12,573 nucleotides of DNA, taken from the IMG/VR virus record IMGVR_UViG_2737471828_000010, positions 1 through 12,573 of that record; one strand, given 5' to 3'. The notes beneath the pieces are model-generated. The model saw only the letters and a program-made list of their open reading frames with translations. It searched no databases and was not told where the DNA came from. This DNA comes from a virus (Duplodnaviria; Heunggongvirae; Uroviricota; Caudoviricetes). Each line of letters begins with the position of its first letter. Within the stretch, counting starts at the first letter, position 1. Below are positions 1-12,573 of the stretch, in pieces. The position numbers were made by a program, and so were the translations under genes.

Positions 1-603
1 GCAGCCACGCAGACCTTTGATGGTATTGCACAGAATATGGCGGCGATGCTGACCGGCAGTGAGCAGAACTGGCGCAGCTTCACCCGTTCCGTGCTGTCCA
101 TGATGACAGAAATTCTGCTTAAGCAGGCAATGGTGGGGATTGTCGGGAGTATCGGCAGCGCCATTGGCGGGGCTGTTGGTGGCGGCGCATCCGCGTCAGG
201 CGGTACAGCCATTCAGGCCGCTGCGGCGAAATTCCATTTTGCGTCCGGGGGATTTACGGGAACCGGCGGCAAATATGAGCCAGCGGGGATTGTTCACCGT
301 GGTGAGTTTGTCTTCACGAAGGAGGCAACCAGCCGGATTGGCGTGGGAAATCTTTACCGGCTGATGCGCGGCTATGCCACCGGCGGTTATGTCGGTGGCA
401 CCGGAAGTCCGGCGCAAATGCGGCGTTCAGAGGGTATCAGATTTGAGCAGAACAACAACGTGGTGATTCAGAACGACGGTACGAATGGTCTGCCAGGTCC
501 ACAAATGCTGAAGGCGGTGTATGACATGGCCCGCAAGGGTGCCCGTGATGAAATTCAGGCACAGATGCGTGATGGTGGTCAGTTCTCCGGAGGTGGACGA
601 TGA
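1..603 (+). CDS. H: Tail tape measure protein, C-terminal fragment (5' end lies upstream of the window)
   Basis: The frame is open from base 1 with no stop before 601..603; the first in-frame ATG at 37 is not the true start. The Gly-rich C-terminal translation (...GGYVGGTGSPAQMRRSEG...KAVYDMARKGARDEIQAQMRDGGQFSGGGR) matches my recollection of the lambda gpH C-terminus. Its stop overlaps the M start (ATGA at 600..603). Confidence 0.9.
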   Translation, partial: AATQTFDGIAQNMAAMLTGSEQNWRSFTRSVLSMMTEILLKQAMVGIVGSIGSAIGGAVGGGASASGGTAIQAAAAKFHFASGGFTGTGGKYEPAGIVHRGEFVFTKEATSRIGVGNLYRLMRGYATGGYVGGTGSPAQMRRSEGIRFEQNNNVVIQNDGTNGLPGPQMLKAVYDMARKGARDEIQAQMRDGGQFSGGGR

Positions 604-929
604 AAACCTTTCGCTGGAAAGTGAAACCCGGCATGGATGTGGCTTCGGCCCCTTCCGTCAGGGAAGTGCGCTTTGGTGATGGCTATTCCCAGCGAGCGCC
701 TGCCGGACTGAATGCCGACCTGAAAACGTACAGCGTGACGCTTTCTGTTCCTCGTAAGGAGGCCACGGCGCTGGAGTCGTTTCTGGCAGAGCACGGAGGC
801 TGGAAAGCCTTTCTGTGGACGCCGCCTTATGGTTACAGGCAGATAAAGGTGACCTGCGCAAAATGGACGTCGCGGGTCAGTATGTTGCGTGTTGAGTTCA
901 GCGCAGAGTTTAAACAGGTGGTGAACTGA
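600..929 (+). CDS. M: Tail tip assembly protein M
   Basis: 109 aa, the same length as lambda gpM, and near-identical from the first residues (MKTFRWKVKPGMDVAS...VEFSAEFKQVVN). Start overlaps the H stop and the stop overlaps the L start (TGATG at 927..931), consistent with translational coupling. Confidence 0.93.
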   Translation: MKTFRWKVKPGMDVASAPSVREVRFGDGYSQRAPAGLNADLKTYSVTLSVPRKEATALESFLAEHGGWKAFLWTPPYGYRQIKVTCAKWTSRVSMLRVEFSAEFKQVVN

Positions 930-1627
930 TGCAGGATATCCGGCAGGAAACACTGAATGAATGCACCCGTGCGGAGCAGTCGGCCAGCGTGGTGCTCTGG
1001 GAAATCGACCTGACAGAGGTCGGTGGAGAACGTTATTTTTTCTGTAATGAGCAGAACGAAAAAGGTGAACCGGTCACCTGGCAGGGGCGGCAGTATCAGG
1101 CATACCCCATTCAGGGGAGCGGTTTTGAACTGAATGGCAAAGGGGCCAGCGCCAGACCAGTGCTGAGCGTGTCCAATCTGTATGGTCTGGTCACCGGGAT
1201 GGTGGAGGATTTGCAGAGTCTGGTTGGCGGAACGGTGGTCCGACGTAAGGTTTACGCCCGTTTTCTGGATGCGGTGAACTTCGTCAACGGAAACAGTGAC
1301 GCCGACCCGGAGCAGGAGGTGGTCAGCCGCTGGCGCATCGAGCAGTGTAGCGAACTGACGGCGGTTGGTGCCTCCTTTGTGCTGGCCACACCGACGGAAA
1401 CGGATGGCGCCGTTTTTCCGGGGCGCATCATGCTGGCCAACACCTGCACCTGGACCTATCGCGGCGATGAGTGCGGTTATCACGGTCCGGCGGTCGCGGA
1501 TGAATATGACCAGCCGACGTCCGATATCACGAAAGATAAATGCAGCAAATGCCTGAGCGGCTGTAAGTTTCGCAATAACATCGGTAACTTTGGCGGCTAC
1601 CTTTCCATTAACAAACTTTCGCAGTAA
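929..1627 (+). CDS. L: Tail tip assembly protein L
   Basis: 232 aa, the same length and closely similar sequence to lambda gpL as I recall it. Cysteine-rich C-terminus (CTWTYRGDECGYHG...CSKCLSGC), consistent with the Fe-S cluster described for gpL. Confidence 0.93.
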   Translation: MQDIRQETLNECTRAEQSASVVLWEIDLTEVGGERYFFCNEQNEKGEPVTWQGRQYQAYPIQGSGFELNGKGASARPVLSVSNLYGLVTGMVEDLQSLVGGTVVRRKVYARFLDAVNFVNGNSDADPEQEVVSRWRIEQCSELTAVGASFVLATPTETDGAVFPGRIMLANTCTWTYRGDECGYHGPAVADEYDQPTSDITKDKCSKCLSGCKFRNNIGNFGGYLSINKLSQ

Positions 1628-1632
1628 ATCCC

Positions 1633-2376
1633 ATGACACAGACAGAATCAGCGATTCTGGCGCACGCCCGGCGATGTGCGCCAGCGGAATCGTGCGGCTT
1701 CGTGGTGAGAACGCCGGAGGGGGACAGGTATTTACCCTGCGCGAATATTTCCGGTGAGCCGGAGGCGTATTTCCGGATGGCTCCGGAGGACTGGCTGCGG
1801 GCAGAAATGCAGGGTGAGATTGCGGCGCTGGTCCACAGTCACCCCGGTGCTCTGCCCTGGCTGAGTGAGGCCGACCGGCGGCTGCAGGTGCAGAGTGGTC
1901 TGCCGTGGTGGCTTGTCTGCCGGGGGGCGATTCACAAGTTCCGCTGTGTGCCGCATCTTACCGGGCGGCACTTTGAGCACGGGGTGACGGACTGTTATGC
2001 GCTGTTCCGGGATGCGTACCATCTGGCGGGGATTGCGCTGCCTGATTTTCATCGTGAGGATGACTGGTGGTGTCACGGTCAGAATCTCTATCTGGATAAC
2101 CTTGAAACACAGGGTTTTTACCGGGTCTCACCGCATGAGGCACAGGCAGGCGACGTGCTGCTGTGTTGTTTTGGCTCGCCTGTTGCCAATCATGCCGCCA
2201 TTTACTGTGGTGACGGCGAGCTGCTGCACCATATTCCTGAACAACTGAGCAAACGAGAGAGGTACACCGACAAATGGCAGCGACGCACACACTCCGTCTG
2301 GCGTCACCGGGCATGGCACGCATCTGCCTTTACGGGGATTTGCAACGATTTGGCCGCCGCATCGACCTGCGTGTGA
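1633..2376 (+). CDS. K: Tail assembly protein K (JAMM/MPN plus NlpC/P60 two-domain protein)
   Basis: 247 aa ORF with a JAMM-type motif H-x-H-x7-S-x2-D (HSHPGALPWLSEAD, residues 68-81) and a candidate upstream Glu in PAESCGF (residue 19), followed by an NlpC/P60-like Cys/His region (GVTDCY...NHAAIY). The classic 199-aa lambda K annotation would correspond to Met49 (nt 1777). No strong Shine-Dalgarno precedes 1633, so the exact start is uncertain. Confidence 0.85.
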   Translation: MTQTESAILAHARRCAPAESCGFVVRTPEGDRYLPCANISGEPEAYFRMAPEDWLRAEMQGEIAALVHSHPGALPWLSEADRRLQVQSGLPWWLVCRGAIHKFRCVPHLTGRHFEHGVTDCYALFRDAYHLAGIALPDFHREDDWWCHGQNLYLDNLETQGFYRVSPHEAQAGDVLLCCFGSPVANHAAIYCGDGELLHHIPEQLSKRERYTDKWQRRTHSVWRHRAWHASAFTGICNDLAAASTCV

Positions 2377-2951
2377 AAACGGGGGCAGAAGCCATCCGGG
2401 CGCTGGCCACACAGCTCCCTGCGTTTCGCCAGAAACTGAGCGACGGCTGGTATCAGGTGCGGATAGCAGGGAAAGATACAGGAGAGAGAGAGCTGTCTGC
2501 CCGTCTGCATGAGCCGCTTCCTGACGGCGCAGTGATACACCTGGTTCCTCGGACAGCCGGTGCTAAAAACGGCGGTGTTTTCCAGATTGTTCTGGGGGCT
2601 GTCGCCATTGCGGCTTCGTTTTTTACTGCAGGAGCCTCTCTGGCTATGTGGGGCGCCGCATTGAGTGCAACAACACTGAGCGCCACTACAGTCCTGTTTT
2701 CTCTCGGTGCCAGTATGATTCTGGGGGGTGTGGCGCAGATGCTGGCCCCGAAACCGAAAACGCCCCGCATGCAGACAACGGATAACGGTAAGCAGAATAC
2801 CTATTTTTCCTCACTGGATAACATGGTTGCCCAGGGCAATGTTCTGCCGGTTCTGTACGGTGAAATGCTCGTGGGATCGCGGGTGATTTCACAGGAAATC
2901 AGCACGGCTGATGAGGGGGGCGGCGGTCAGGTAGTGGTGATTGGTCGCTGA
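2274..2951 (+). CDS. I: Tail assembly protein I
   Basis: 225 aa, closely similar to lambda gpI (MAATHTL.LASPGMARICLYGDLQRFGRRIDLRVKTGAEAIRALATQLP...GGQVVVIGR). The start lies inside the 3' end of K (about 100 nt overlap, different frame), as in lambda. Confidence 0.9.
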   Translation: MAATHTLRLASPGMARICLYGDLQRFGRRIDLRVKTGAEAIRALATQLPAFRQKLSDGWYQVRIAGKDTGERELSARLHEPLPDGAVIHLVPRTAGAKNGGVFQIVLGAVAIAASFFTAGASLAMWGAALSATTLSATTVLFSLGASMILGGVAQMLAPKPKTPRMQTTDNGKQNTYFSSLDNMVAQGNVLPVLYGEMLVGSRVISQEISTADEGGGGQVVVIGR

Positions 2952-2968
2952 TGCAAATGTTTTATGTG

Positions 2969-2993
2969 AAACCGCCTCCGGGCGGTTTTTTTT
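2969..2993 (+). terminator. GC stem-loop followed by an 8-T run between I and J (intrinsic terminator or attenuator)
   Basis: aaaCCGCCtccgGGCGGtttttttt lies directly after the I stop (2949..2951) and before the J ribosome binding site (GGAGAG at 2996..3001). Confidence 0.5.
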
Positions 2994-3007
2994 ATGGAGA
3001 GTAAGTG

Positions 3008-6000
3008 ATGGGTAAAGGTGGCGGTAAGGCGCATACGCCCCGTGAAGCCAGAGATAACCTGAAATCCTCCCAGTTGCTGAGTGTGATTGACGCCATCAGT
3101 GAAGGACCGGTTTATGGTCCGGTTGACGGGCTGAAAAGTGTCCGCCTGAATGGTACGCCGGTACTGGACAGCGGGGGGAATACCAACTTTTCCGGTGTCA
3201 CGGTGGTGTTCCGTTCCGGTGAACAGGAGCAGACACCGCCGGAGGGGTTTGAATCCTCCGGCTCCGAGACGGTACTGGGTGCGGAAGTGAAATACGACAC
3301 GCCGATAACCCGGACCATCACGTCGGCAAACATCGACCGTCTGCGCCTGACCTTCGGGGTGCAGGCACTGGTGAAAACCACCTCAAAGGGGGACAGGGAG
3401 CCGTCGGAAGTCCGCCTGCTGGTTCAGATACAGCGTAATGGTGGCTGGGTGACGGAAAAAGACATCACCATTAAGGGCAAAACCACCTCGCAGTATCTGG
3501 CATCGGTGGTGGTGGATAACCTGCCGCCGCGCCCGTTTAATATCCGGATGCGCAGGATAACGCCGGACAGCACCACGGACCAGTTGCAGAACAAAACGGT
3601 CTGGTCGTCATACACCGAAATCATCGATGTGAAACAGTGCTACCCGAACACGGCACTGGTCGGTGTGCAGGTGGATTCTGAGCAGTTCGGCAGCCAGCAG
3701 GTGAACCGCACTTACCATTTTCGTGGTCGTATTCTGCAGGTTCCGTCGAACTATAACCCGCAGACGCGGCAATACAGCGGTATCTGGGACGGAACGTTAA
3801 AACCGGCATACAGCAACAACCCGGCCTGGTGTCTGTGGGATATGCTGACCCACCCGCGCTACGGCATGGGGAAACGTCTTGGTGCGGCAGATGTGGATAA
3901 ATGGGCGCTGTATGTCATCGGCCAGTACTGCGACCAGTCAGTGCCGGACGGTTTTGGCGGCACGGAGCCGCGCATCACCTGTAATGCCTGGCTGACCACA
4001 CAACGTAAGGCGTGGGATGTGCTCAGCGATTTCTGCTCGGCGATGCGCTGTATGCCGGTATGGAACGGGCAGACGCTGACGTTCGTGCAGGACCGGCCAT
4101 CGGATAAGGTGTGGACCTATAACCGCAGTAATGTGGCGATGCCGGGTGATGGCGCGCCGTTCCGCTACAGCTTCAGCGCCCTGAAGGACCGCCATAATGC
4201 CGTTGAGGTGAACTGGATTGACCCTGACAACGGCCAGGAGACGGCGACAGAGCTTGTGGAGGACACGCAGGCCATTGCCCGTTACGGTCGTAACGTCACG
4301 AAGATGGATGCCTTTGGCTGTACCAGTCGTGGGCAGGCGCACCGCGCCGGGCTGTGGCTGATTAAAACAGAACTGCTGGAAACGCAGACCGTGGACTTCA
4401 GCGTGGGTGCTGAAGGGCTTCGCCATGTACCGGGCGATGTCATTGAAATCTGCGATGATGACTATGCCGGTATCAGCACCGGCGGGCGCGTGCTGGCGGT
4501 AAACAGCCAGACCCGGACGCTGACGCTCGACCGTGAAATCACGCTGCCATCCTCCGGTACCACGCTGATAAGCCTGGTTGACGGAAGTGGCAATCCGGTC
4601 AGCGTGGAGGTCCAGTCCGTCACCGACGGCGTGAAGGTAAAAGTGAGCCGTGTTCCTGACGGCGTTGCAGAATACAGCGTGTGGGGGCTGAAGCTGCCGA
4701 CGCTGCGTCAGCGCCTGTTTCGCTGTGTGAGTATCCGTGAGAACGATGACGGCACGTATGCCATCACCGCCGTGCAGCATGTACCGGCAAAAGAGGCCAT
4801 CGTGGATAACGGGGCGCACTTTGACGGCGACCAGAGCGGCACGGTGAATGGTGTCACGCCGCCAGCGGTGCAGCACCTGACTGCCGAAGTCACCGCAGAC
4901 AGCGGGGAATATCAGGTGCTGGCGCGCTGGGACACGCCGAAGGTGGTGAAGGGGGTGAGCTTCCTGCTCCGTCTGACCGTAACAGCGGACGAAGGCAGTG
5001 AGCGGCTGGTCAGCACGGCCCGGACGACGGAAACCACATACCGCTTCACGCAACTGGCGCTGGGGAACTACAGGCTGACAGTCCGGGCGGTAAATGCGTG
5101 GGGACAGCAGGGCGATCCGGCATCGGTATCGTTCCGGATTGCCGTACCAGCAGCGCCGTCGCGGATTGAGCTGACACCGGGCTATTTTCAGATAACCGCC
5201 ACGCCGCATCTTGCGGTTTATGATCCGACGGTGCAGTTTGAGTTCTGGTTCTCGGAAAAGCGGATTGCGGATATCAGGCAGGTTGAAACCAGCGCGCGTT
5301 ATCTTGGTACGGCGCTGTACTGGATAGCCGCCAGTATCAATATCAAACCGGGCCATGATTATTACTTTTATATCCGCAGTGTGAACACCGTTGGCAAATC
5401 GGCATTCGTGGAGGCTGTTGGTCAGCCGAGTGATGATGCATCCGGTTATCTGGATTTTTTCAAAGGCGAGATAGGGAAAACCCATCTGGCTCAGGAGCTG
5501 TGGACGCAGATTGATAACGGTCAGCTTGCGCCTGACCTGGCTGAAATCAGGACGTCCATTACGGATGTCAGCAATGAAATCACACAGACCGTCAATAAGA
5601 AACTGGAAGACCAGAGTGCAGCGATCCAGCAGATACAGAAGGTTCAGGTTGATACAAATAATAATCTGAACAGCATGTGGGCTGTGAAGCTGCAACAGAT
5701 GAAGGACGGACGCCTTTATATTGCGGGTATCGGTGCCGGTATTGAGAATACGCCAGCAGGAATGCAGAGTCAGGTGCTGCTGGCGGCAGACAGGATTGCG
5801 ATGATTAATCCTGCGAATGGCAACACAAAGCCGATGTTTGTTGGTCAGGGTGATCAGATATTCATGAATGAAGTGTTCCTGAAATATCTGACGGCTCCCA
5901 CCATTACCAGTGGCGGTAATCCTCCGGCGTTTTCCCTGACTCCGGACGGGCGGCTGACGGCGAAAAATGCGGATATCAGCGGTAACGTGAACGCGAACTC

Positions 6001-6487
6001 CGGGACACTCAACAACGTCACGATAAATGAGAACTGCCGGATTCTGGGAAAACTGTCAGCCAACCAGATTGAAGGCGATATTGTTAAAACAGTGGGTAAG
6101 GCTTTTCCCCGGGACTCCCGGGCACCGGAGCGGTGGCCATCAGGGACCATTACCGTCAGGGTTTATGACGATCAGCCGTTTGACCGGCAAATTGTTATTC
6201 CGGCGGTGGCATTCAGTGGCGCTAAGCATGAGAGAGAGCATACTGATATTTACTCCTCATGCCGTCTGATAGTGCGGAAAAACGGTGCTGAAATTTATAA
6301 CCGTACCGCGCTGGATAATACGCTGATTTACAGTGGTGTTATTGATATGCCAGCAGGCAGAGGTGTAATGACACTGGAGTTTTCGGTATCAGCATGGCTG
6401 GTGAATAACTGGTATCCCACCGCAAGTATCAGCGATTTGCTGGTTGTGGTGATGAAAAAATCCACAGCCGGTATCACGATTAGCTGA
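3008..6487 (+). CDS. J: Tail tip / host specificity protein J (central tail fiber)
   Basis: About 1159 aa. The N-terminus [34 protein letters not shown]... and most of the length are closely similar to lambda gpJ as I recall it. The ORF track begins at GTG 3005, but ATG 3008 with GGAGAG 6 nt upstream is the more likely start. The last ~150 aa and a block near nt 5460-5700 diverge from lambda. Confidence 0.93.
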
Positions 6488-6505
6488 ATTTTATAATCCA
6501 TATAC

Positions 6506-6531
6506 TGGCGCCAGAAATGGCGCCTTTTTTA
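6506..6531 (+). terminator. Intrinsic terminator downstream of J
   Basis: Palindromic stem GGCGCC (6507..6512) / GGCGCC (6519..6524) with loop agaaat, followed by TTTTTT (6525..6530), 20 nt after the J stop. Confidence 0.65.
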
Positions 6532-6584
6532 TTGTTATTCCTGAATCCTCTCTTCCGGGGCTGACATTGACTTATGGAGTACAT

Positions 6585-8306
6585 ATGGCCGTACAGATAT
6601 CTGGTGTACTGAAAGACGGTGCGGGTAAACCGGTGCAGGCGTGTTCAATTGAATTGCGGTCCAGAAAAACGAGTCCGACGGTGATTGTGCACATTGTGGC
6701 GGAATGTATTACGGACAGTAACGGGCGGTATTTAATCGAAGCCGAGCCAGGATTTTATGATGTTTTTCTTCTCCGTGAAGGGTGGGCTCCGGTAAAAGCC
6801 GGTGAGATTTATGTCACACCGACGGATAAGCCGGATACGCTGAATGCATTTCTGGATGCTCCCAAAGATGGCGATTTGCGTCCTGAGGTGATGAAACGCT
6901 TTGAGATAATGGTGAATACCGTTATTACGCTGTCTGAGCAGGTTACCCGTGATAAGGAGGCAACAGGCGCAGACGCCGCGGCAGCGGCAGAATCGGCGTC
7001 CGCTGCCCGGGAAAGTGAAAGGAAATCGCAGAATTATGAGGTGCAGTCTCAGAAAAATGCAGAGTCTGCAGCCGGAAGTGCGCAGGAGGCCGGACAATAT
7101 GCTGTGGAGGCTGCACAGGCAAGAGATAATACGCAGACCCTTGCTGATGCGGTGCAGAAAAATGCAGAGGTTGTGGCAGAACAGCGTCAGCAGGTGAATA
7201 TACTGGCTGCAGAAATGGCAGAAAATGCCGGACAGGTTCAGCAGGATAAACAGGATACTGAGCGGCTGCTGGAGCAGGCACAACAGGCAGCCAGTGAGTC
7301 TTCAGCCAGTGCCGTGGAGTCGGGGACGCATGCCAGCGAAGCTGCACAGAGTGCACGGCAGGTAAGCAGTGATTTACAGAAGACGGTAACGGCACGTAAT
7401 GAGGCAGAGGGTTTTGCCACAGAGGCCGCCAGTCGTGCAGAAGAGAGTGCACAGATAAAAGCGCAGACGGAGTCCGTGGCTCTGAATGTTCAGCATGTGG
7501 CAGACAGTGTTGTGGCTGTAAGCCAGTCTGTGGAGCTACAGGCCGGGCAGGTGCAGCAACTGGTCAGCCAGGCGGAAGACAGTGCCACGACAGCAGGTGA
7601 ACATGAGCAGGGGGCACTGAAGGCACTGGAGGAGGCCAGGGAGATTGCAAAAACGCCAGGACCACAGGGAGAGCCAGGACCGCAGGGGGAGACCGGCCCA
7701 CAGGGCCCCAGTGGTGAAAAGGGAGAGAAAGGGGACCGGGGCGATACCGGGCCTCAGGGAGAAAAAGGTGAGAAAGGCGATAAAGGTGATACCGGTGCCC
7801 GGGGAGCTACCGGCCCACAGGGGCCTCAGGGACCCATGGGACCCAGCGGAGTTTACCCGGAAGACGGGATAAAGACTGCGAAAAAATTCACGGGTATTCT
7901 GGCTCATGGTTTTATGTATTCTGACCTTCAGTTTCCGTTGCTGAAATATAACCACTACCTTGCCTGTGAAGACCACCCCGTTCCGGGTGCCGCGGGAAAT
8001 TATTCGTATGGTCTGATGTGGCAGGTTCCGACGAATGAGAATGTTTCAGGTCAGATTTTCCTTAACTGTATGGGACAGGCATTCATCAGGGCTTACAGCG
8101 GACTGGGTACCACTTCATGGTGGCAGTTTGCCGGTCGTCCGGTAGCCGGTGGTGTGGGGAGTTACCTGTTCTGTGCTTCTCAGGATGCGGTCAGTTACGG
8201 AGATGAACTGGCCGGAGAGCGGCTTGACCCGGTACAGTCAGGAATATGGATGGCCTGCGGAAATGCAGAAGCTGAAGAGAAAATGCTTTTTCTGAGGGTG
8301 AAATAA
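6585..8306 (+). CDS. stf: Side tail fiber protein (Stf-like) with an Ala/Gln/Glu-rich shaft, a collagen-like tract and a distinct C-terminal domain
   Basis: N-terminus [24 protein letters not shown]... resembles the lambda Stf N-terminus ([17 protein letters not shown]...). ATG 6585 has GGAG 5 nt upstream; the track start TTG 6567 is less likely. Residues ~125-360 form a low-complexity A/Q/E/S-rich region, and the C-terminal ~150 aa is a globular-looking domain I cannot assign. Confidence 0.8.
7659..7850 (+). repeat. Collagen-like Gly-X-Y repeat tract (64 residues) inside the tail fiber gene
   Basis: Uninterrupted G-X-Y periodicity, [64 protein letters not shown], visible in the DNA as repeated ggN-ccN-cag and ggN-gaN-aaa units. 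Confidence 0.85.
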
Positions 8307-8917
8307 TGGATACCAGGAATTCAGAAGCGGACGTGCGCAATGCCCGTTTTAATGAAGACGGCAGCATTACCTGTGAGGTGTTCATGGCAGACCGTTCTGA
8401 TGACAGTCATCGGGTATATGTACCTTATACTGCCAGAGCTTCAGACCCGACAGAATTCGGGTTAAGGCTCTGGTCAGGACTGATATCAGGGGACCTTGGT
8501 GAAGTCACGCCGTTTGTGGTGACAGAGGAGATACTGGAAAAGGCCAGAAATCAGAAATACGGTGAAATCAGTCGCTGGCGTGACAGCCAGGAGAACAGCA
8601 GTTTTGTTTTTGAATTCAGTGGTCATCGCTGGGATGCCGGAAAGGCGTCACAGTCCAGACTGACACCTGTTGTTGCGGTGGCAGGAAACGGGCTGTTGCC
8701 GGAGCATTTTTTCTGGACGGATGCGGATAATCAGGATGTCACTCTGACGCCGGAAGAGCTGATACAACTGGATACTGCGATGAATGCGGCGATGGTGATG
8801 CAGGGGTTTAAAATCCACGAACGCCAGCGCCGGATGAAAGAAGAAGTGGCAGGGCTGACCGCACTGCCGGATATTCGTGCGTATCCTGTTGGCTGGCCGG
8901 AGGGTGATGATGAGTAA
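8306..8917 (+). CDS. Putative tail fiber assembly protein (Tfa-like chaperone)
   Basis: 203 aa ORF whose ATG overlaps the fiber stop (TAATG at 8304..8308), with a GAGGGTG ribosome binding site upstream. Position immediately after the fiber gene and a C-terminal segment (...TPEELIQLDTAMNAAMVMQGFKIHERQRRMKEEVAGLTALPDIRAYPVGWPE) reminiscent of Tfa C-termini. Assigned by context plus weak similarity. Confidence 0.6.
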   Translation: MDTRNSEADVRNARFNEDGSITCEVFMADRSDDSHRVYVPYTARASDPTEFGLRLWSGLISGDLGEVTPFVVTEEILEKARNQKYGEISRWRDSQENSSFVFEFSGHRWDAGKASQSRLTPVVAVAGNGLLPEHFFWTDADNQDVTLTPEELIQLDTAMNAAMVMQGFKIHERQRRMKEEVAGLTALPDIRAYPVGWPEGDDE

Positions 8918-9290
8918 GTTCACCACACCGGCCATTCTGGAGATGCTGGATGATTACCGCTGGCGGCTGGTTGAGCCGTTTGAATTCTGGCTGACGGATA
9001 ACCCGGATGATGTGATTTATGTTCCGGAGGGATATGTGACGGACCTTGCCAGTGTGCCACGGCTTCTGTGGGCTCTGTTCCCGCCGCATGGTCGTTATGC
9101 GAAAGCGGCGATTATTCATGACTGGCTGTATGACAATGCCCTGCGCACGAAGGCGGAAGCGGACAGGATATTTCTGGATGCGATGACGGTGCTGGGAGTT
9201 CCACGCTGGCGCAGACGGTTGATGTATCTTGCGGTAAGGTTGTTCGGGAAAGGGAAATACAGCGACACGCAACAGGGGACCTGTTGCTGA
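8907..9290 (+). CDS. DUF1353-like small protein (tail-fiber-associated, function unknown)
   Basis: About 127 aa from the ATG pair at 8907/8910, with GGAGGG at 8899..8904, overlapping the stop of the preceding gene. Translation MMSKFTTPAILEMLDDYRWRLVEPFEFWLTD...YVTDLASVPRLLWALFPPHGRYAKAAIIHDWLY resembles the DUF1353 signature as I remember it. The track start GTG 8877 is less likely. Confidence 0.55.
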   Translation: MMSKFTTPAILEMLDDYRWRLVEPFEFWLTDNPDDVIYVPEGYVTDLASVPRLLWALFPPHGRYAKAAIIHDWLYDNALRTKAEADRIFLDAMTVLGVPRWRRRLMYLAVRLFGKGKYSDTQQGTCC

Positions 9291-9320
9291 AAAAAGTCTG
9301 CCATACAGATGTATGGCAGA
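9290..9320 (-). terminator. Leftward intrinsic terminator candidate (H1)
   Basis: Perfect stem CTGCCATA (9298..9305) / TATGGCAG (9312..9319), flanked on the + strand 5' side by six A's, which gives a 3' U-run on the - strand transcript. Confidence 0.5.
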
Positions 9321-9493
9321 AAAGGTATCCAAGGGAGAAGACACTGCAGTGCAGTATCCCTTATGGTCGGCGGTGATTATATAACCACAGAACGGCGCAT
9401 CAAACAGTTTTACGTACCAGTTGTTAAATTTGTGTATTATATCAAACAAATTGGTAACATGCTGCTGTGTGTAAATGTGATGTTAACATGGTG

Positions 9494-9529
9494 ATATGTG
9501 TTACTGACTGGTATTGCCTGTTCACCTGG
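9494..9529. repeat. ~36 nt repeat, copy 1 of 2 (atatgtgttactgactggtattgcctgttcacctgg)
   Basis: Matches 10569..10609, which carries a short internal insertion (ccacg/accacgt). Both copies are in the ORF-poor AT-rich region. Confidence 0.6.
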
Positions 9530-9564
9530 TCTGTGAAGATATGCAACATGGCCCATGTTGTAGC

Positions 9565-9597
9565 AAAAAAAGCCTGCCATACAGATATATGGCAGGC
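9565..9597 (-). terminator. Leftward intrinsic terminator candidate (H2, paralog of H1)
   Basis: Stem GCCTGCCATA / TATGGCAGGC with loop cagata, preceded on + by seven A's. On the - strand this reads as a GC stem followed by TTTTTTT. Same stem as H1 with a 1-nt loop difference. Confidence 0.6.
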
Positions 9598-9805
9598 AAA
9601 CGTCTGTTACGGGAAAACAAATGAATGTCGGGTATAGTACCCCCTTACTTGACTCCTTCACAATTATGCATCAATAATGAAACATATAAAGCATTTGTAT
9701 TTTCTTATTGCTGGTTTTGTGTATTGCGTCTCAAAACTAAATTATTTTATTACTCTCATAATAAATGAGGTAAATTATATATATAGTTATTTATTCTGTT
9801 TTTAT

Positions 9806-9834
9806 AAAAAGAAGCCCACAGATTACTGTGGGCT
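9806..9834 (-). terminator. Leftward intrinsic terminator candidate (H3)
   Basis: Stem AGCCCACAG / CTGTGGGCT with loop atta, preceded on + by tataaaaagaa (a U-rich tail on the - strand). Confidence 0.55.
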
Positions 9835-10085
9835 AAGCATTAGCATTATTTATATTAGTATAGTTACGGTTGCTGTAAGCATATTAGCTTACGGAAATGT
9901 TGATAACTCTGATGGGAATCACAAAAAAATACCAGTGCTGAAAATGACAGTACTGGTAAAAATATGATGAGTATTTGCAAAAAATACAACCGAATTGCTC
10001 TGTAAGGTTCACTACCTCTTTTATTCTACTATAAATTATAGTACATAGTTCTGTGATACTTATCACGCTGTATATTCATTGGTAT

Positions 10086-10110
10086 AAAAAGGCCCGTATG
10101 GATACGGGCC
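10086..10110 (-). terminator. Leftward intrinsic terminator candidate (H4)
   Basis: Stem GGCCCGTA / TACGGGCC with loop tgga, preceded on + by tataaaaa. Confidence 0.55.
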
Positions 10111-10207
10111 TGGCTTACGGGATAGGCTAACTGAGTAAGTAGGGTTATGGCTTACTCGCCGGCAGTATACCATATAAAACAACGGACAATTCTTTGCGGT
10201 AAATCAT

Positions 10208-10236
10208 AAAAAAAGACCCGTACCGTACGTGCGGGT
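10208..10236 (-). terminator. Leftward intrinsic terminator candidate (H5)
   Basis: Stem ACCCGTAC / GTGCGGGT (one non-Watson-Crick position) with loop cgtac, preceded on + by seven A's. Confidence 0.45.
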
Positions 10237-10354
10237 GTTAATTGCTGGTGAAGCTGTCAGAGGTGCATATTATTATAATAACGCTTGTAGACGTTTGTTA
10301 TTATTTATGCCCTCTATTACTGGTACTGTGATTTCCATCACAAAAATACATTAT

Positions 10355-10382
10355 AAAAAGAAAGCCCGCAGATTATGCGGGC
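10355..10382 (-). terminator. Leftward intrinsic terminator candidate (H6, paralog of H3)
   Basis: Stem GCCCGCA / TGCGGGC with loop gatta, preceded on + by tataaaaagaaa. Differs from H3 by a compensatory base-pair change (A-T in H3, G-C in H6). Confidence 0.55.
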
Positions 10383-10401
10383 AATAGCTTATGCATGAGA
10401 T

Positions 10402-10426
10402 GAACGACTCCGGGTCGTTTATTTTT
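10402..10426 (+). terminator. Weak rightward hairpin with T-run (possible + strand terminator)
   Basis: Stem AACGAC / GTCGTT with loop tccgg, followed by tatttttc. Short, AT-rich stem. Confidence 0.3.
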
Positions 10427-10568
10427 CTTAATAAGAAGGACTACATTTATATTCTACTATGTAAGTATGGTATTGATGATGTGAAGTATATCTCAAATTA
10501 ACGCAATAAGAAAAAGCAACAACCCATTTCTGAATGTGAGAGAACTGCTAATATAGCAATATGTGTTC

Positions 10569-10609
10569 CTGACTGGTACCACGTATTGCCTGTTCCAGGA
10601 GCATATTTG
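10569..10609. repeat. ~36 nt repeat, copy 2 of 2 (atatgtgttcctgactggtaccacgtattgcctgttccagg)
   Basis: Direct repeat of 9494..9529. Confidence 0.6.
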
Positions 10610-10665
10610 CCTGGATTCAGATTGCTCGTAATTCACCACGGCTATAAATCGTAAAGAAAATTGCA

Positions 10666-10718
10666 GCACGCCCTATGCAAGAACGTGCCACGGCTGGCTG
10701 GCAAACTTTCGATAGTGC
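10666..10718. repeat. ~50 nt imperfect direct repeat, left copy (hairpin with loop tatgcaaga ... cgatagtgc), left flank of the peptidase cassette
   Basis: gcacg-ccctatgcaagaa-cgtgc-cacggctggctggcaaactttcgatagtgc aligns with 12269..12321 (first 15 nt tatgcaagaacgtgc identical; roughly 80 percent identity over the remainder). Confidence 0.65.
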
Positions 10719-10998
10719 GAGTATTGAATGATTTCCAGTCGTTATTGATTCTACGCATTAATTTATGAACAAACTACTTATCTGTGGTCTTTCGGTCTGT
10801 AATAGGGGCCCTGTCTGAAATGGAGTTTCAGGATTAAGCGATATCGTACTCACCCTTAGTCCCACCTGATAAATCTGGAGAACGGAAGCACTGCCAGATG
10901 ATGGTGGTGGCTACAATTACTCACACTCAATATTCGGAGCAATCACGTACATCATCACGATGCTAGGAATGCGGAGTTTGATGACTGTCCAGTGATGT

Positions 10999-11029
10999 AA
11001 AAAGAGACCCCGGCGTAGTAGCCGAGGTC
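10999..11029 (-). terminator. Leftward intrinsic terminator candidate for the peptidase gene
   Basis: Stem GACCCCGGC / GCCGAGGTC (one mismatch) with loop gtagta, 22 nt downstream of the - strand stop at 11051..11053. On the - strand it is followed by tctcTTTTT. Confidence 0.5.
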
Positions 11030-11050
11030 CTCAATCAGAAACTACAATAT

Positions 11051-12055
11051 TCACTGAGTGCCTTCATCTGGTTGCTCTGCTGGTAAGGTTCCAGCCTCTT
11101 CTTCAATTTCCGCATGTTTTCCATCGCTTCCCTGGACAGGTTCATCCCTTGGCGGTTCTGCTCTTCCTGAATTTTGGTCAGAGATTTCATCTCCTTCCTG
11201 AATTCTGCTGTTGTCATGGGAATCTTCCTCTGCGTTAGTTGTTTCATATTGTTTTTTAGGAGTTAAATCTTTAATCACCGGTTTGTCGAAGATAGAGATT
11301 TCGCCTGACGAAATCATCTCACCAAGAACTTCGTACAGGTTGGCTGCAAAGTCTGTAGGACTCTCAACATGGTTGAATAGTTCCCTCGCCTCTTTACGGT
11401 CTATCACAAAACCATGGGCTGGATATCCAGCGATCAACTTGCCTAAGGAGCTTTCCTTAAGATTTTTCGAGTGACTATTCAAACGCTCCCCATAGGAAAG
11501 CGCTATGTTCATTGCTCGTTGATGCTCCCCGAGTTTGATGGGGTCTATCTGTGAGGCCATCGGCGATATGATTGCTTCAGTAAGCTTAGCAGCAATATCT
11601 GCAGACATCTTCGTGCTAATTTGGTTTCTGTACTTTATATCAAGTACGTATGATCTAAAGGTCGAAATAGCGCACTCTTTTATTTCATCAATCGCCGTTG
11701 CGATAACAAGGCCCGAGCTCAATTCGCCGATCTCATCATTTTTCTTAAGTTGGATGTCTAGAGGACCAAGCTCACCCATATCACCAATCACGAGCTTATG
11801 AGCGGCGACAGCCATCAAGGTTCCAGCACTTTTGCAAGGGCCAACAACTAGAACGGTGATGTGTTCATAGTTGTGTTGCAAAGCGCGGCCAATTCTATAT
11901 CCTGCGCTGGGATCACCGCCATAGGTAGCGACGCAAAAAAGAACATTTTTTTGTAAACCATGGTTAGTTTTTCTTTCTTTAATCGCTTTGGTGATGTCGT
12001 GATGACCAGAGCGGTGAACATCGCCTATGTATACGTAAACGTCTGTATCTTGCAT
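11051..12055 (-). CDS. Stand-alone ClpP/SppA-fold serine peptidase-like protein (S49/SDH-like) with an acidic low-complexity C-terminal tail
   Basis: 334 aa ORF with ribosome binding site AGGGA 5 nt upstream of the ATG (- strand). N-terminal ~220 aa follows the ClpP-fold pattern: ATYGGDPSAGYRIGRAL echoes the ClpP NSPGGSVTAG segment, and VVGPCKSAGTLMAVAAHK echoes the ClpP/SppA nucleophile segment (GQAASMG type), giving a candidate catalytic Ser in CKSAG. The last ~70 aa are Asp/Glu-rich and low complexity. No His in the position of the ClpP catalytic His, so a Ser-Lys dyad (SppA-like) is possible. Confidence 0.6.
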   Translation of the reverse strand: MQDTDVYVYIGDVHRSGHHDITKAIKERKTNHGLQKNVLFCVATYGGDPSAGYRIGRALQHNYEHITVLVVGPCKSAGTLMAVAAHKLVIGDMGELGPLDIQLKKNDEIGELSSGLVIATAIDEIKECAISTFRSYVLDIKYRNQISTKMSADIAAKLTEAIISPMASQIDPIKLGEHQRAMNIALSYGERLNSHSKNLKESSLGKLIAGYPAHGFVIDRKEARELFNHVESPTDFAANLYEVLGEMISSGEISIFDKPVIKDLTPKKQYETTNAEEDSHDNSRIQEGDEISDQNSGRAEPPRDEPVQGSDGKHAEIEEEAGTLPAEQPDEGTQ

Positions 12056-12268
12056 TTTAATCCCTATGAATAAAATGGTTGAATTTAATGCTGTTCCTCA
12101 GCCAAAGCACTATATCGATAACCAAAATACCTCAGATTTGTCGAGAAAACTATCTGGAAAATTAGGCTAACTCTTTGAATCTTCGGAATGCAAAAGAGAT
12201 ACTTTCTCTGGATGTGCGCCAGGTTGATGTGTAAGTATGGCGGTCAGAATAGTCTCGAAAAACCGCAG

Positions 12269-12321
12269 GCACGTTGTATGCAAGAACGTGCTGTGGTTGG
12301 CAGGTGAACTTCCGATAGTGC
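12269..12321. repeat. ~50 nt imperfect direct repeat, right copy; also a terminator-like hairpin directly downstream of the DinI-like gene
   Basis: gcacgtt-gtatgcaag-aacgtgc then tgtggttggcaggtgaacttccgatagtgc. On the - strand the hairpin is followed by a T-run (complement of aaaaa at 12258..12262). Confidence 0.6.
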
Positions 12322-12324
12322 TCA

Positions 12325-12573
12325 TTAGTGAACAAACCACTCGTCAGCAGACTCCCAGGTATCTTTCAGAGTTTCCTGCACAAAAGTTTTAGCTGAATCT
12401 TTATCGGCTGTGCGCGTAACAGAAAGGCCATCGTTGCTGGTGGCTTTTACGATCACCTCTACATCGTCATAACGCTTACTGATGCGTCGGGTTAATTCTT
12501 CCTTTAACGCATCCACAGCACTGGTTGGCATTTTAGTCATTTTTTCTTTGGCTATGCAGATTTCAATACGCAT
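12325..12573 (-). CDS. dinI: DinI-family protein (DNA damage-inducible protein I-like, prophage-encoded)
   Basis: 82 aa: [37 protein letters not shown]...[15 protein letters not shown]. Start and C-terminal WESAD-WFV motif match E. coli DinI as I recall it (MRIEVTIAK...ETWESADDWFVSE). The start codon is the last three bases of the window, so the promoter is outside it. Confidence 0.85.

Follow-up and report, generated by a model that had tools for sequence, protein, structure and literature searches.

The window, by which we mean the whole stretch of DNA analysed, comprises 12,573 nt of a virus of the Caudoviricetes (positions 1 to 12,573 of IMG/VR record IMGVR_UViG_2737471828_000010). Its AT-rich region contains the features listed in Table 1. 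On the left, the end of a DUF1353 tail-fibre accessory gene is followed by a hairpin predicted to be an intrinsic terminator for the minus strand. On the right lies a segment that shares homology with the region upstream of K-12 ykgJ and with the ends of many Stx phages; in mEp460 it carries the annotation of a DinI-like protein. The stretch between the two copies of the repeat has predicted minus-strand intrinsic terminators at 9834-9813, 9958-9930, 10111-10090, 10237-10209 and 10382-10364, which are kept in Escherichia coli R1, and promoter-like sites at 9690-9663, 10057-10028, 10301-10272 and 10485-10456. From this layout, 9598..10545 looks like small transcription units. No conserved reading frame was found in the units neighbouring the repeat, and no Rfam family in 9598..10545.

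Table 1. Features of the repeat-bearing region, in coordinates of the window
Feature	Position	Strand	Basis and remarks
A-hp: last ~20 nt of the DUF1353 tail-fibre accessory gene, with hairpin	9269..9320	+	Stop codon 9288-9290; hairpin 9297-9320
Degenerate partial third copy of the repeat	9452..9484	.	Repeat family D2 at 67%; window haplotype only
X1: copy 1 (9481-9523; core 9494-9523) with adjoining 19 nt	9481..9542	-	Putative relic of ykgJ about nt 93/118-195; 7-nt deletion relative to copy 2 and ykgJ
A'-hp': second, non-coding copy of tail-gene end and hairpin	9543..9597	+	Hairpin 9572-9597; junction with X1 at 9542/9543
AT-rich non-coding stretch between the copies	9598..10545	-	Predicted terminators and promoter-like sites
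X2: copy 2 (10546-10595; core 10559-10595) in ykgJ-like pseudogene	10546..10625	-	ykgJ alignment, RGTSQE
Upstream of the ykgJ relic: remnant 3' end of a DinI-like gene, terminator at 10691-10663	10626..10778	-	Homology

The two copies of the repeat are in direct orientation. The core of copy 1 is ATATGTGTTACTGACTGGTATTGCCTGTTC and that of copy 2 is ATATGTGTTCCTGACTGGTA + CCACGTA + TTGCCTGTTC, the form common to both being ATATGTGTT(A/C)CTGACTGGTA...TTGCCTGTTC. The cores of copies 1 and 2 are 30 and 37 nt long. Both are built of a 20-nt block, in which one position differs (A/C), and an identical block of 10-13 nt, with a 7-nt indel between them. The likeness extends 13 nt further to the left, giving copies of 43 and 50 nt with 37 identities and one 7-nt indel (self-BLAST, E = 2.5e-4). 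The preliminary description had placed a 36-nt repeat pair at 9494..9529 and 10569..10609, the second copy with a short insertion. The place of copy 1 and the insertion, which is the indel CCACGTA between the conserved blocks, were right; the length was approximate, and the coordinates of copy 2 were 10 nt too high, its core being 10559-10595.

The repeat pair is real and beyond chance. The core 20-mer with at most 3 mismatches was found twice in the window, against 0.01 matches expected, and two matches occurred in 0/200 shuffles. When 9290-11050 was shuffled 300 times with dinucleotides preserved, the highest-scoring direct repeat reached 32.8 bits, as compared with 34.6 bits for the observed pair, so that none of the shuffles produced a direct repeat as good. 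Three direct repeats exceeded every shuffle: 9290-9319/9566-9595, 9802-9833/10351-10382 and the repeat pair itself. There is in addition a weak partial third copy, consisting of the left half of the repeat and lying in tandem with copy 1 (22/33 matches; 3/1000 shuffles equal).

The tail-gene end and its hairpin are also present twice, with 81% identity over 53 nt between 9269-9319 and 9543-9595 (self-BLAST, E = 1e-8). The order of the modules is A-hp, X1, A'-hp', X2, so that the hairpin pair and the repeat pair interleave, which is the pattern expected from tandem or unequal-crossover duplication. The earlier suggestion that the AT-rich region holds duplicated short modules was thereby borne out. 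A third, more diverged haplotype (L046) has a single A-hp module, joined directly to the homologue of 9598-9739. It is without any copy of the repeat and keeps neighbouring promoter-like and terminator elements, namely the promoter-like sites 9690-9663 and 10485-10456 and three terminators, at 70-74% identity.

The motif was rare, being present in 10 of 5,426 complete E. coli genomes and in three metagenome contigs. These represent two haplotypes only, that of the window and a sister haplotype (E. coli R1, L002), each with both copies at one locus; no second locus was found elsewhere in any of these genomes. Carriers of the motif include E. coli GXU-23-25-310 and R1. No occurrence was found in GTDB species representatives, phages or plasmids, a pattern scan of IMG/VR viral contigs gave chance matches only, and the loci beside DUF1353 homologues in viral contigs all end at the region or lack it. 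Homology between the window and R1 begins at 9492, within copy 1, and amounts to 100% identity over 9495-9632 and about 91% elsewhere. In this comparison the 91% block 9492-10519 is bordered by copy 2, at 87.5% identity; such a pattern may mark the 'shoulder' of a lambdoid mosaic boundary or, in a comparison of two haplotypes, may equally come from differential decay of one pseudogene. On either side of copy 2 the haplotypes align poorly, while its core is identical, including an 18-nt run, GCAATATGTGTTCCTGAC, within the poorly alignable stretch. Indels of 7, 8, 14 and 1 nt separate the copies and haplotypes.

On the opposite strand, the motif seems to derive from coding sequence of a gene of the ykgJ family. 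Segment 10608-10778 is homologous to the start (nt 1-22) and upstream region of K-12 ykgJ (81% over 174 nt, E = 8e-44), and copy 2 lies 12 nt from this segment in the same, minus-strand orientation. Within X2, nt 1-22 of the gene are at 10625-10604 with the start codon ATG changed to ACG, followed after a ~95-nt deletion by nt ~118-195. The copy-2 stretch of R1 is collinear with K-12 ykgJ nt 47-180 (81/139 identities; 0/500 shuffles). The part of that stretch which flanks the motif on its upstream side (ykgJ nt 47-124) could be aligned with allele P0005 as well (0/1000 shuffles), and R1 keeps ykgJ nt 47-69 at 7144-7166 (1/1000 shuffles). In the window, comparison of copy 2 with ykgJ nt 116-200 gave 15/18 identities at the expected collinear place (5/2000 shuffles), with GGTACCAGTCAGGAACAC paired to GGTACCAATCAGAAAAAC; the spacing between the anchors AATAT and ACCAGTCAG is 25 nt in copy 2 and 26 nt in intact genes. 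Translated in the ykgJ frame, copy 2 reads AIRGTSQEHIL, as compared with CMRGTSQKNPRC in E. coli alleles P0005/P0009 and SGTNQK in K-12, with RGTSQE in place of the RGTSQK of the intact P0005/P0009 alleles.

Because the match between the motif and ykgJ is short (15/18 to 17/21 identities) and for copy 2 moderately significant (p about 0.0025 in the restricted test, 0.02-0.04 over the whole gene), the case depends on collinearity, with the R1 sequence as the bridge; the R1 copy could also be read in another register (MSGT). Copy 1 shows collinearity with the relic at R1 copy 2 and, weakly, with ykgJ. It contains ACCAGTCAG (TSQ) exactly, identical to nt 151-159 of allele P0005, and GGTCTGTGAAGA of X1 is common to the flank of R1 copy 2. 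On its own, copy 1 was not significant against ykgJ (103/2000 shuffles), and its status as a relic therefore comes through its similarity to copy 2. No recognisable ykgJ 3' half (beyond about nt 195) was found beside either copy.

Intact ykgJ-like genes occupy this position elsewhere, convergent with DUF4376 and a tail fibre gene in two loci (L049/L050) and after YadA-like cargo in another (L045). The YkgJ-family cysteine cluster genes (PF03692, CxxCxxCC) carried as cargo behind the tail-fibre genes of E. coli lambdoid prophages have the same place and orientation as the relic, convergent with the last tail-fibre accessory gene. They share with it collinear similarity at nt 1-22 and ~47/118-195 and the allele-specific RGTSQ(K/E). 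Unlike the intact genes, the relic is cut near nt 195, is present twice and has no open frame. A functional YkgJ-family gene was rejected on account of the ATG>ACG change, stops and frameshifts, and the loss in the window of the CxxCxxCC region (nt 19-42). As a separate observation, the K-12 ykgJ locus and its upstream region are homologous to cargo behind the tail genes of lambdoid prophages. A plus-strand protein relic or DUF1353 gene end was also considered and rejected: there was no Pfam signal and no DNA similarity to the body of the DUF1353 gene, and in the DUF1353 comparison only the known 'QHGPCC' gene-end paralogy scored.

We consider that the two copies are probably decayed, non-functional relics of one internal piece of a ykgJ-family gene, duplicated by recombination of two related prophages. 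The most economical origin would be one unequal or illegitimate crossover between such prophages, placing two alleles of the same locus ('tail-gene end + hairpin ... ykgJ') head to tail with the junction at 9542/9543. The short allele would span 9269-9542 (A-hp, 160 nt, X1). The long one would follow at 9543-10625, with about 950 nt of small units bounded by terminators between A'-hp' and X2. In a single crossover, the hairpin module and the ykgJ piece would both become duplicated, which would explain the interleaved order. The ykgJ copies would later have decayed by the start-codon mutation, the ~95-nt internal deletion, the 7-nt deletion and truncation near nt 195. An unduplicated short allele was present in none of the collections searched, and we therefore infer the crossover history rather than observe it. 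When the left flank of R1 was used as the query for an 'empty site' or alternative joints, homology elsewhere stopped short of the junction.

The repeat pair looks like ordinary phage mosaic debris. Mosaic joints and duplicated flanks in the genomes of lambdoid phages, which evolve in modules through illegitimate and homeologous recombination (Martinsohn et al. 2008, PMC2327257), resemble it in their short common patches at block edges, patchy divergence and partial gene ends. Unlike those joints, the common patch here occurs twice in a single genome, owing to the proposed tandem joining of two alleles of a locus. We would assign the pair no regulatory role; at most, its 20 + 13 identical nt may allow the 1.07-kb segment to be lost on rare occasions. 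The perfect conservation of GCAATATGTGTTCCTGAC between the haplotypes could alternatively reflect constraint.

Among the other explanations, the one that survives best, which we nevertheless regard as unlikely, is that the repeat, irrespective of where it came from, is kept as a short conserved boundary for the swap, gain or loss of the ~1-kb non-coding segment between prophages through recombination, homologous or homeologous. The breaks in homology between the haplotypes fall at or inside the copies (that between the window and R1 at 9492), the core of copy 2 is identical while both its sides align poorly, and lambdoid phages are known to recombine through Red/RecET on short or diverged homology with short conserved flanks (PMC2327257). 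The breaks around copy 2 are, however, explained by different deletions in one pseudogene, and cassette exchange needs no identical sequence at both ends. The motif was moreover always seen as both copies at one locus in its two haplotypes, and an 'empty' or exchanged site was not found.

The preliminary description had proposed that the repeat is a conserved 5' segment of paralogous small RNAs. In its specific form this would mean two minus-strand RNAs of about 233 and 240 nt, each starting at a copy and ending at the next terminator, which appears very unlikely. Each copy does lie between two minus-strand terminators, these are dense (7 versus 1.5 expected), and the distances from copy to next T-run differ by exactly the 7-nt indel. 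Small RNAs encoded by prophages are also common in E. coli (PMC4104026; bioRxiv 10.64898/2026.05.13.724894). Several findings nevertheless speak against the proposal. No promoter-like site lies upstream of either copy, and the better promoter candidates are downstream of them (9403-9376 and 10485-10456), the latter conserved in the motif-free haplotype. The bodies of the two supposed RNAs are unrelated (global alignment; 37/500 shuffles do as well). Alignment folds of the four copies on both strands gave a negligible shared structure (consensus -4.1 and -2.3 kcal/mol); in single-sequence folds, copy 2 formed a plus-strand hairpin of -22.1 kcal/mol (z = -3.7) and copy 1 had a z of about 0. A search of the window against Rfam 15, including AgvB, AsxR, Esr41, STnc100, Sok and IsrK, gave three sub-threshold matches only, none of them on the repeat, and none of the prophage small RNAs in the literature (Pas, HnrS, svsR) maps to the position of the repeat. 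Pairs of the OmrA/OmrB type and the prophage small RNAs AgvB, AsxR, Esr41, Pas and HnrS are alike in having a short segment twice or a terminator-rich prophage context. Unlike them, the repeat has no promoter, shared terminator, fold or Rfam match, and the motif is missing where the neighbouring units are conserved.

Lower still in probability is a co-opted scrap of ykgJ, the copies either being boundaries that move a ~1-kb orphan small-RNA array or each serving as the 5' seed of a ~235-nt minus-strand RNA. Were this true, the perfect 18-nt core in a scrambled stretch would reflect selection and not accident.

A shared promoter or operator had likewise been put forward. A common sigma-70 promoter was rejected, as in consensus scans of the window and of R1 no -35/-10 pair with 16-18 nt spacing overlapped 9481-9523, 10546-10595 or the R1 copies. 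The 7-8-nt indel shifts the spacing of the conserved blocks and rules out a common promoter spanning them. Sigma-E-like and sigma-54-like elements, looked for by eye, had spacing that was wrong or inconsistent among the four copies. An upstream operator or activator site shared by the minus-strand promoters 9403-9376 and 10496-10456 seems highly improbable. In its favour, each copy precedes a promoter-like site on the minus strand, at 50-78 nt from the -35 hexamer, and the core is conserved between the two haplotypes. The centres of the copies, however, would be some 120-140 nt upstream of the predicted starts and not equally far from them, and the copies differ by 7-8 nt in internal spacing. 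In addition, L046, which has no motif, still carries promoter 10485-10456 with its terminator, and promoter-like sites are not enriched (7 versus 6.0 in shuffles).

The least probable reading, hardly to be credited, is that the copies are the ends of a small non-autonomous mobile element (MITE-, IS200/IS605-style or att-like) that brought in the 1-kb segment; direct repeats do flank a discrete segment, the plus-strand hairpin of copy 2 is strong and other strains have an IS200C insertion in the homologous region, but the motif is at one locus per genome (10/5,426; none in species representatives, phages, plasmids or viral contigs), is unlike the IS200C ends, which sit elsewhere in the segment, and is unlike the int-dusA att region, and copy 1 has no significant hairpin. 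An att-like site was rejected for lack of similarity to the int-dusA junction. Template and variable repeats of a diversity-generating retroelement were also rejected, there being no reverse transcriptase among the annotated genes of a near-identical prophage or the ORFs, and the repeat measuring 43-50 nt with a single A/C core difference and an indel.

If the copies are relics of ykgJ, a conspicuous direct repeat is gene debris from mosaic recombination and not regulatory, which removes a false lead and makes for tidier annotation, and little more. Morons are independently transcribed cargo with their own promoter and terminator in the late regions of lambdoid prophages. Like them, the region is AT-rich and is situated between the tail genes and the end that carries the integrase, with terminator-bounded units directed against the late operon. 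Unlike a moron, the repeat is not a unit but would be the debris of one (ykgJ). The putative promoter-plus-terminator units between the copies, which fall outside Rfam, are more interesting than the repeat itself.

The repeat in the AT-rich region has the core ATATGTGTT(A/C)CTGACTGGTA...TTGCCTGTTC, located at 9494-9523 (copy 1) and 10559-10595 (copy 2), with 7 additional nt (CCACGTA) in copy 2. The 36-nt direct pair of the preliminary description exists and its first copy was confirmed, but its second interval (10569-10609) had been placed 10 nt too high. Likeness extends 13 nt leftward (9481-9523 versus 10546-10595; 37 identities, one 7-nt gap, E 2.5e-4). With up to 3 mismatches allowed, the 20-mer matched twice in none of 200 window shuffles, and chance matching was rejected, since none of 300 dinucleotide shuffles of 9290-11050 gave a direct repeat as good (maximum 32.8 bits, observed 34.6 bits). 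The terminator hairpin pair 9290-9319/9566-9595 (extended, 9269-9319/9543-9595) and the terminator pair 9802-9833/10351-10382 also beat all shuffles. With three direct repeats exceeding every shuffle, the proposal that the region was built from duplicated short modules was upheld. A degenerate partial third copy at 9452-9484 abuts copy 1.

The window covers the right arm of a dusA-integrated lambdoid prophage, and its gene map was taken from the annotation of the E. coli GXU-23-25-310 prophage, which is 97.7% identical to it. At 9400-10800, GC falls from ~0.55 to 0.31-0.39. Of the 8 terminator-like sites that a consensus scan detected in this stretch, versus 1.5 expected from shuffles, 7 are minus-strand; two more hairpin and T-run sites (9958-9930, 10237-10209) were recognized by eye, and the scan detected their homologues in E. 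coli R1, the sister haplotype. The intrinsic terminators packed in 9290-11030 are all on the minus strand.

Features of the window, with modules of the repeat region numbered by order on the + strand
Feature	Position	Strand	Source or order
Tail genes L, K-like peptidase, I, J			GXU-23-25-310 annotation
Tail fibre gene	after tail genes L, K-like, I, J		GXU-23-25-310 annotation
DUF4376 gene	8306-8917		GXU-23-25-310 annotation
DUF1353 gene	8910-9290		GXU-23-25-310 annotation
Gene-free stretch	~1.7 kb after DUF1353 gene		GXU-23-25-310 annotation
A-hp: DUF1353 gene end and hairpin	9269-9320		first
X1: putative ykgJ relic with copy 1	9481-9542		second
A'-hp': non-coding second gene end and hairpin	9543-9597		third
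X2: putative ykgJ relic with copy 2	10546-10625		fourth
SDH Clp-fold protease	11051-12055	minus	GXU-23-25-310 annotation
DinI-like gene, then integrase, dusA	beyond SDH Clp-fold protease		GXU-23-25-310 annotation
Intrinsic terminators of the 9290-11030 array	11030-11005, 10691-10663, 10382-10364, 10237-10209, 10111-10090, 9958-9930, 9834-9813, 9597-9572, 9320-9297	minus	

The right flank of copy 2 gave the lead to the identity of the repeat. On the minus strand, 10608-10778 matches, at 81% identity, the start (first 22 nt) and upstream region of E. coli K-12 ykgJ, a 'cysteine cluster protein' gene (L013 1501-1674, K-12 lineage); the relic start codon is ACG. The R1 counterpart lacks the start and keeps ykgJ nt 47-69. 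The R1 segment with copy 2 is collinear with ykgJ nt 47-180 (81/139 identities, 0/500 shuffles), and its flank upstream of the motif (ykgJ nt 47-124) also aligns with the YkgJ-family allele P0005 (0/1000 shuffles). Copy 2 of the window lies at the expected ykgJ place (GGTACCAGTCAGGAACAC versus GGTACCAATCAGAAAAAC, 5/2000 shuffles), where the anchors AATAT and ACCAGTCAG are spaced by 25 nt, against 26 nt in intact genes. The window pseudogene would thus comprise nt 1-22, a ~95-nt deletion and nt ~118-195, and because of this deletion the K-12 BLAST homology ends at 10608. Translated in the ykgJ frame, copy 2 gives ...AIRGTSQEHIL...; two E. coli alleles among 120 YkgJ-family proteins (P0005, P0009) read CMRGTSQKNPRC, and K-12 has CMSGTNQKNPRC. 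Copy 1 keeps ACCAGTCAG (TSQ) and has lost 7 nt relative to both copy 2 and ykgJ. Beyond about nt 195, nothing recognisable of ykgJ adjoins either copy. Intact ykgJ-like genes in other prophages (L049/L050, L045) immediately follow tail-fibre accessory genes and converge with them; the one in L045 comes after the same YadA-like cargo as in R1. We consider both copies probable relics of a ykgJ-family gene, on a short motif likeness that leans in part on collinearity and on R1 as a bridge; copy 1 appears tied to ykgJ mainly via its likeness to copy 2. Decaying gene debris with no regulatory function is the best-supported reading of the pair. Deletions around copy 2 differ between the two haplotypes and account for the 'island' of identity GCAATATGTGTTCCTGAC in poorly alignable sequence, although some selection on this core might also act. 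The copies are identical over 20 + 13 nt and lie in direct orientation, which makes an infrequent loss of the 1.07 kb between them conceivable; none was observed.

The start of chromosomal ykgJ, with its upstream region, is found in almost every E. coli: 4,964 of 5,426 genomes match 10608-10660. Many Stx-converting phages carry the segment 10663-10778 close to their ends, and in phage mEp460 it overlaps a DinI-like gene. Given the homology of its start and upstream region to a prophage segment, the K-12 ykgJ locus looks like fixed prophage cargo.

The motif was found in 10 of 5,426 complete E. coli genomes and three metagenome contigs, and in none of the GTDB species representatives, deposited phages or plasmids; the matches from an IMG/VR scan, all in giant-virus capsid genes, were down to chance. 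Every occurrence belonged to one of two haplotypes, the window type (GXU-23-25-310, L044) or the R1 type (nine mostly bovine strains, L002, L042, L043), which is ~91% identical to the window over 9492-10519. Both retain both copies and the copy-specific A/C difference. In R1, a 2.4-kb YadA-like cargo between the first hairpin and copy 1 removes the left 13-15 nt of copy 1. In a third, more diverged haplotype (L046-L048 and about 27 genomes; 70-78% identity), a single 'DUF1353 end and hairpin' runs straight into a homologue of 9598-9739; a truncated IS200C comes next, then a homologue of 10210-10497. This haplotype has no motif copy, even with 5 substitutions allowed; two promoter-like sites (9690-9663, 10485-10456) and three terminators (9597-9572, 10237-10209, 10382-10364) are kept. 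On the point of absence from homologous regions, the outcome was divided: the motif is present in close homologues but missing in a distant one that keeps neighbouring units.

In the R1-type prophage L002, the two hairpin copies are separated by a gene for a YadA-like adhesin and a hypothetical gene of 175 residues (3549-5998), and sitABCD iron/manganese transporter genes (7349-10798) follow the AT-rich region inside an interrupted ydfJ. Window 9495-9632 is 100% identical to L002 6001-6138 over 138 nt, the rest of the shared segment being ~90-95% identical, which suggests a recent recombination patch starting at the edge of shared homology. The truncated IS200C (tnpA without its C-terminus; L046 4186-4772, L047 3414-3857, L048 3186-3628) lies between homologues of window 9739 and 10210, where the window has three terminator units; the same copy occurs in about 27 genomes with differing surroundings.

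The order A, X, A', X' is the expected product of a tandem junction between two alleles of a 'tail-gene end ... ykgJ' locus. The short allele would have had 160 nt from hairpin to ykgJ, and the long allele about 950 nt of small terminator-bounded units. Their junction would lie at 9542/9543, where ykgJ-relic sequence meets the final ~23 nt of a gene end of DUF1353 type. Both direct-repeat pairs of the preliminary description could stem from one crossover, unequal or illegitimate, between two related prophages, and the third haplotype, with a single A-hp joined directly to long-allele units, would represent an unduplicated state. We infer this history from two motif-bearing haplotypes only, a base of low comparative power. 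Recombination on short or diverged homology is established in lambdoid phages (PMC2327257). The repeat would then be an ordinary by-product of prophage mosaicism.

What the relic reading leaves is shared by a recombination anchor, small-RNA 5' segments, an upstream operator and mobile-element ends. For paralogous small RNAs with the repeat as 5' segment, putative minus-strand RNAs starting at the copies would be 233 and 240 nt long, a difference of exactly the indel, but their bodies proved unrelated, no Rfam family lay on the repeat, and alignment folds of the four copies were negligible on both strands. Copy 2 can fold into a strong + strand hairpin (-22.1 kcal/mol, z = -3.7), with nothing comparable in copy 1 (z about 0). 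A conserved reading frame is excluded by indels of 7, 8, 14 and 1 nt among copies and haplotypes, and plus-strand frames gave no Pfam signal. As for a shared promoter, no sigma-70-like site overlapped any of the four copies in the window and R1, the 7-8-nt indel is incompatible with one promoter spanning both conserved blocks, and the nearest promoter-like sites (9403-9376; 10496-10467, 10485-10456; minus strand) lie downstream of the copies in the minus sense. The promoter, operator and small-RNA functions proposed for the repeat are not supported.

The orphan promoter-terminator units between the copies are a better follow-up subject than the repeat. Several terminators of the 9290-11030 array have a promoter-like site 50-100 nt upstream, and at least two units (9690-9663 to 9597-9572; 10485-10456 to 10382-10364) are kept at 70-74% identity in the third haplotype (L046). 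Rfam has no entry for any of the array's minus-strand units, which resemble orphan prophage small-RNA genes or an insulator shielding the tail operon from antisense transcription. Terminators 9802-9833 and 10351-10382 are paralogous including their A-rich leaders (88% identical), and a paired stem change (CCCACAG/CTGTGGG versus CCCGCAG/..TGCGGG) is consistent with selection to keep the hairpin.

A 96-codon hydrophobic + strand ORF (9677-9967) adjoins the sole + strand promoter-like site (9649-9678); since it crosses two minus-strand terminators and is broken in R1 by a 4-nt deletion, it is unlikely to be a gene. The RefSeq 35-residue 'capsid protein' at ~10661-10768 on the + strand (L001 11462-11569, a near-identical genome) overlaps the DinI-like remnant as well as the remnant's terminator, and the call is probably spurious. 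A sub-threshold Rfam match to CssrB (Shigella chromosomal sRNA B) at 10637-10692, + strand (24.9 bits, gathering score 76), covers the model ends only, with 127 model positions missing, and coincides with the ykgJ relic's upstream terminator. A weak isrK-like match at 6443-6530, + strand (20.5 bits, gathering score 50, E 0.78), extends over the end of gene J plus a terminator on the + strand (GGCGCCAGAAATGGCGCC and T-run).
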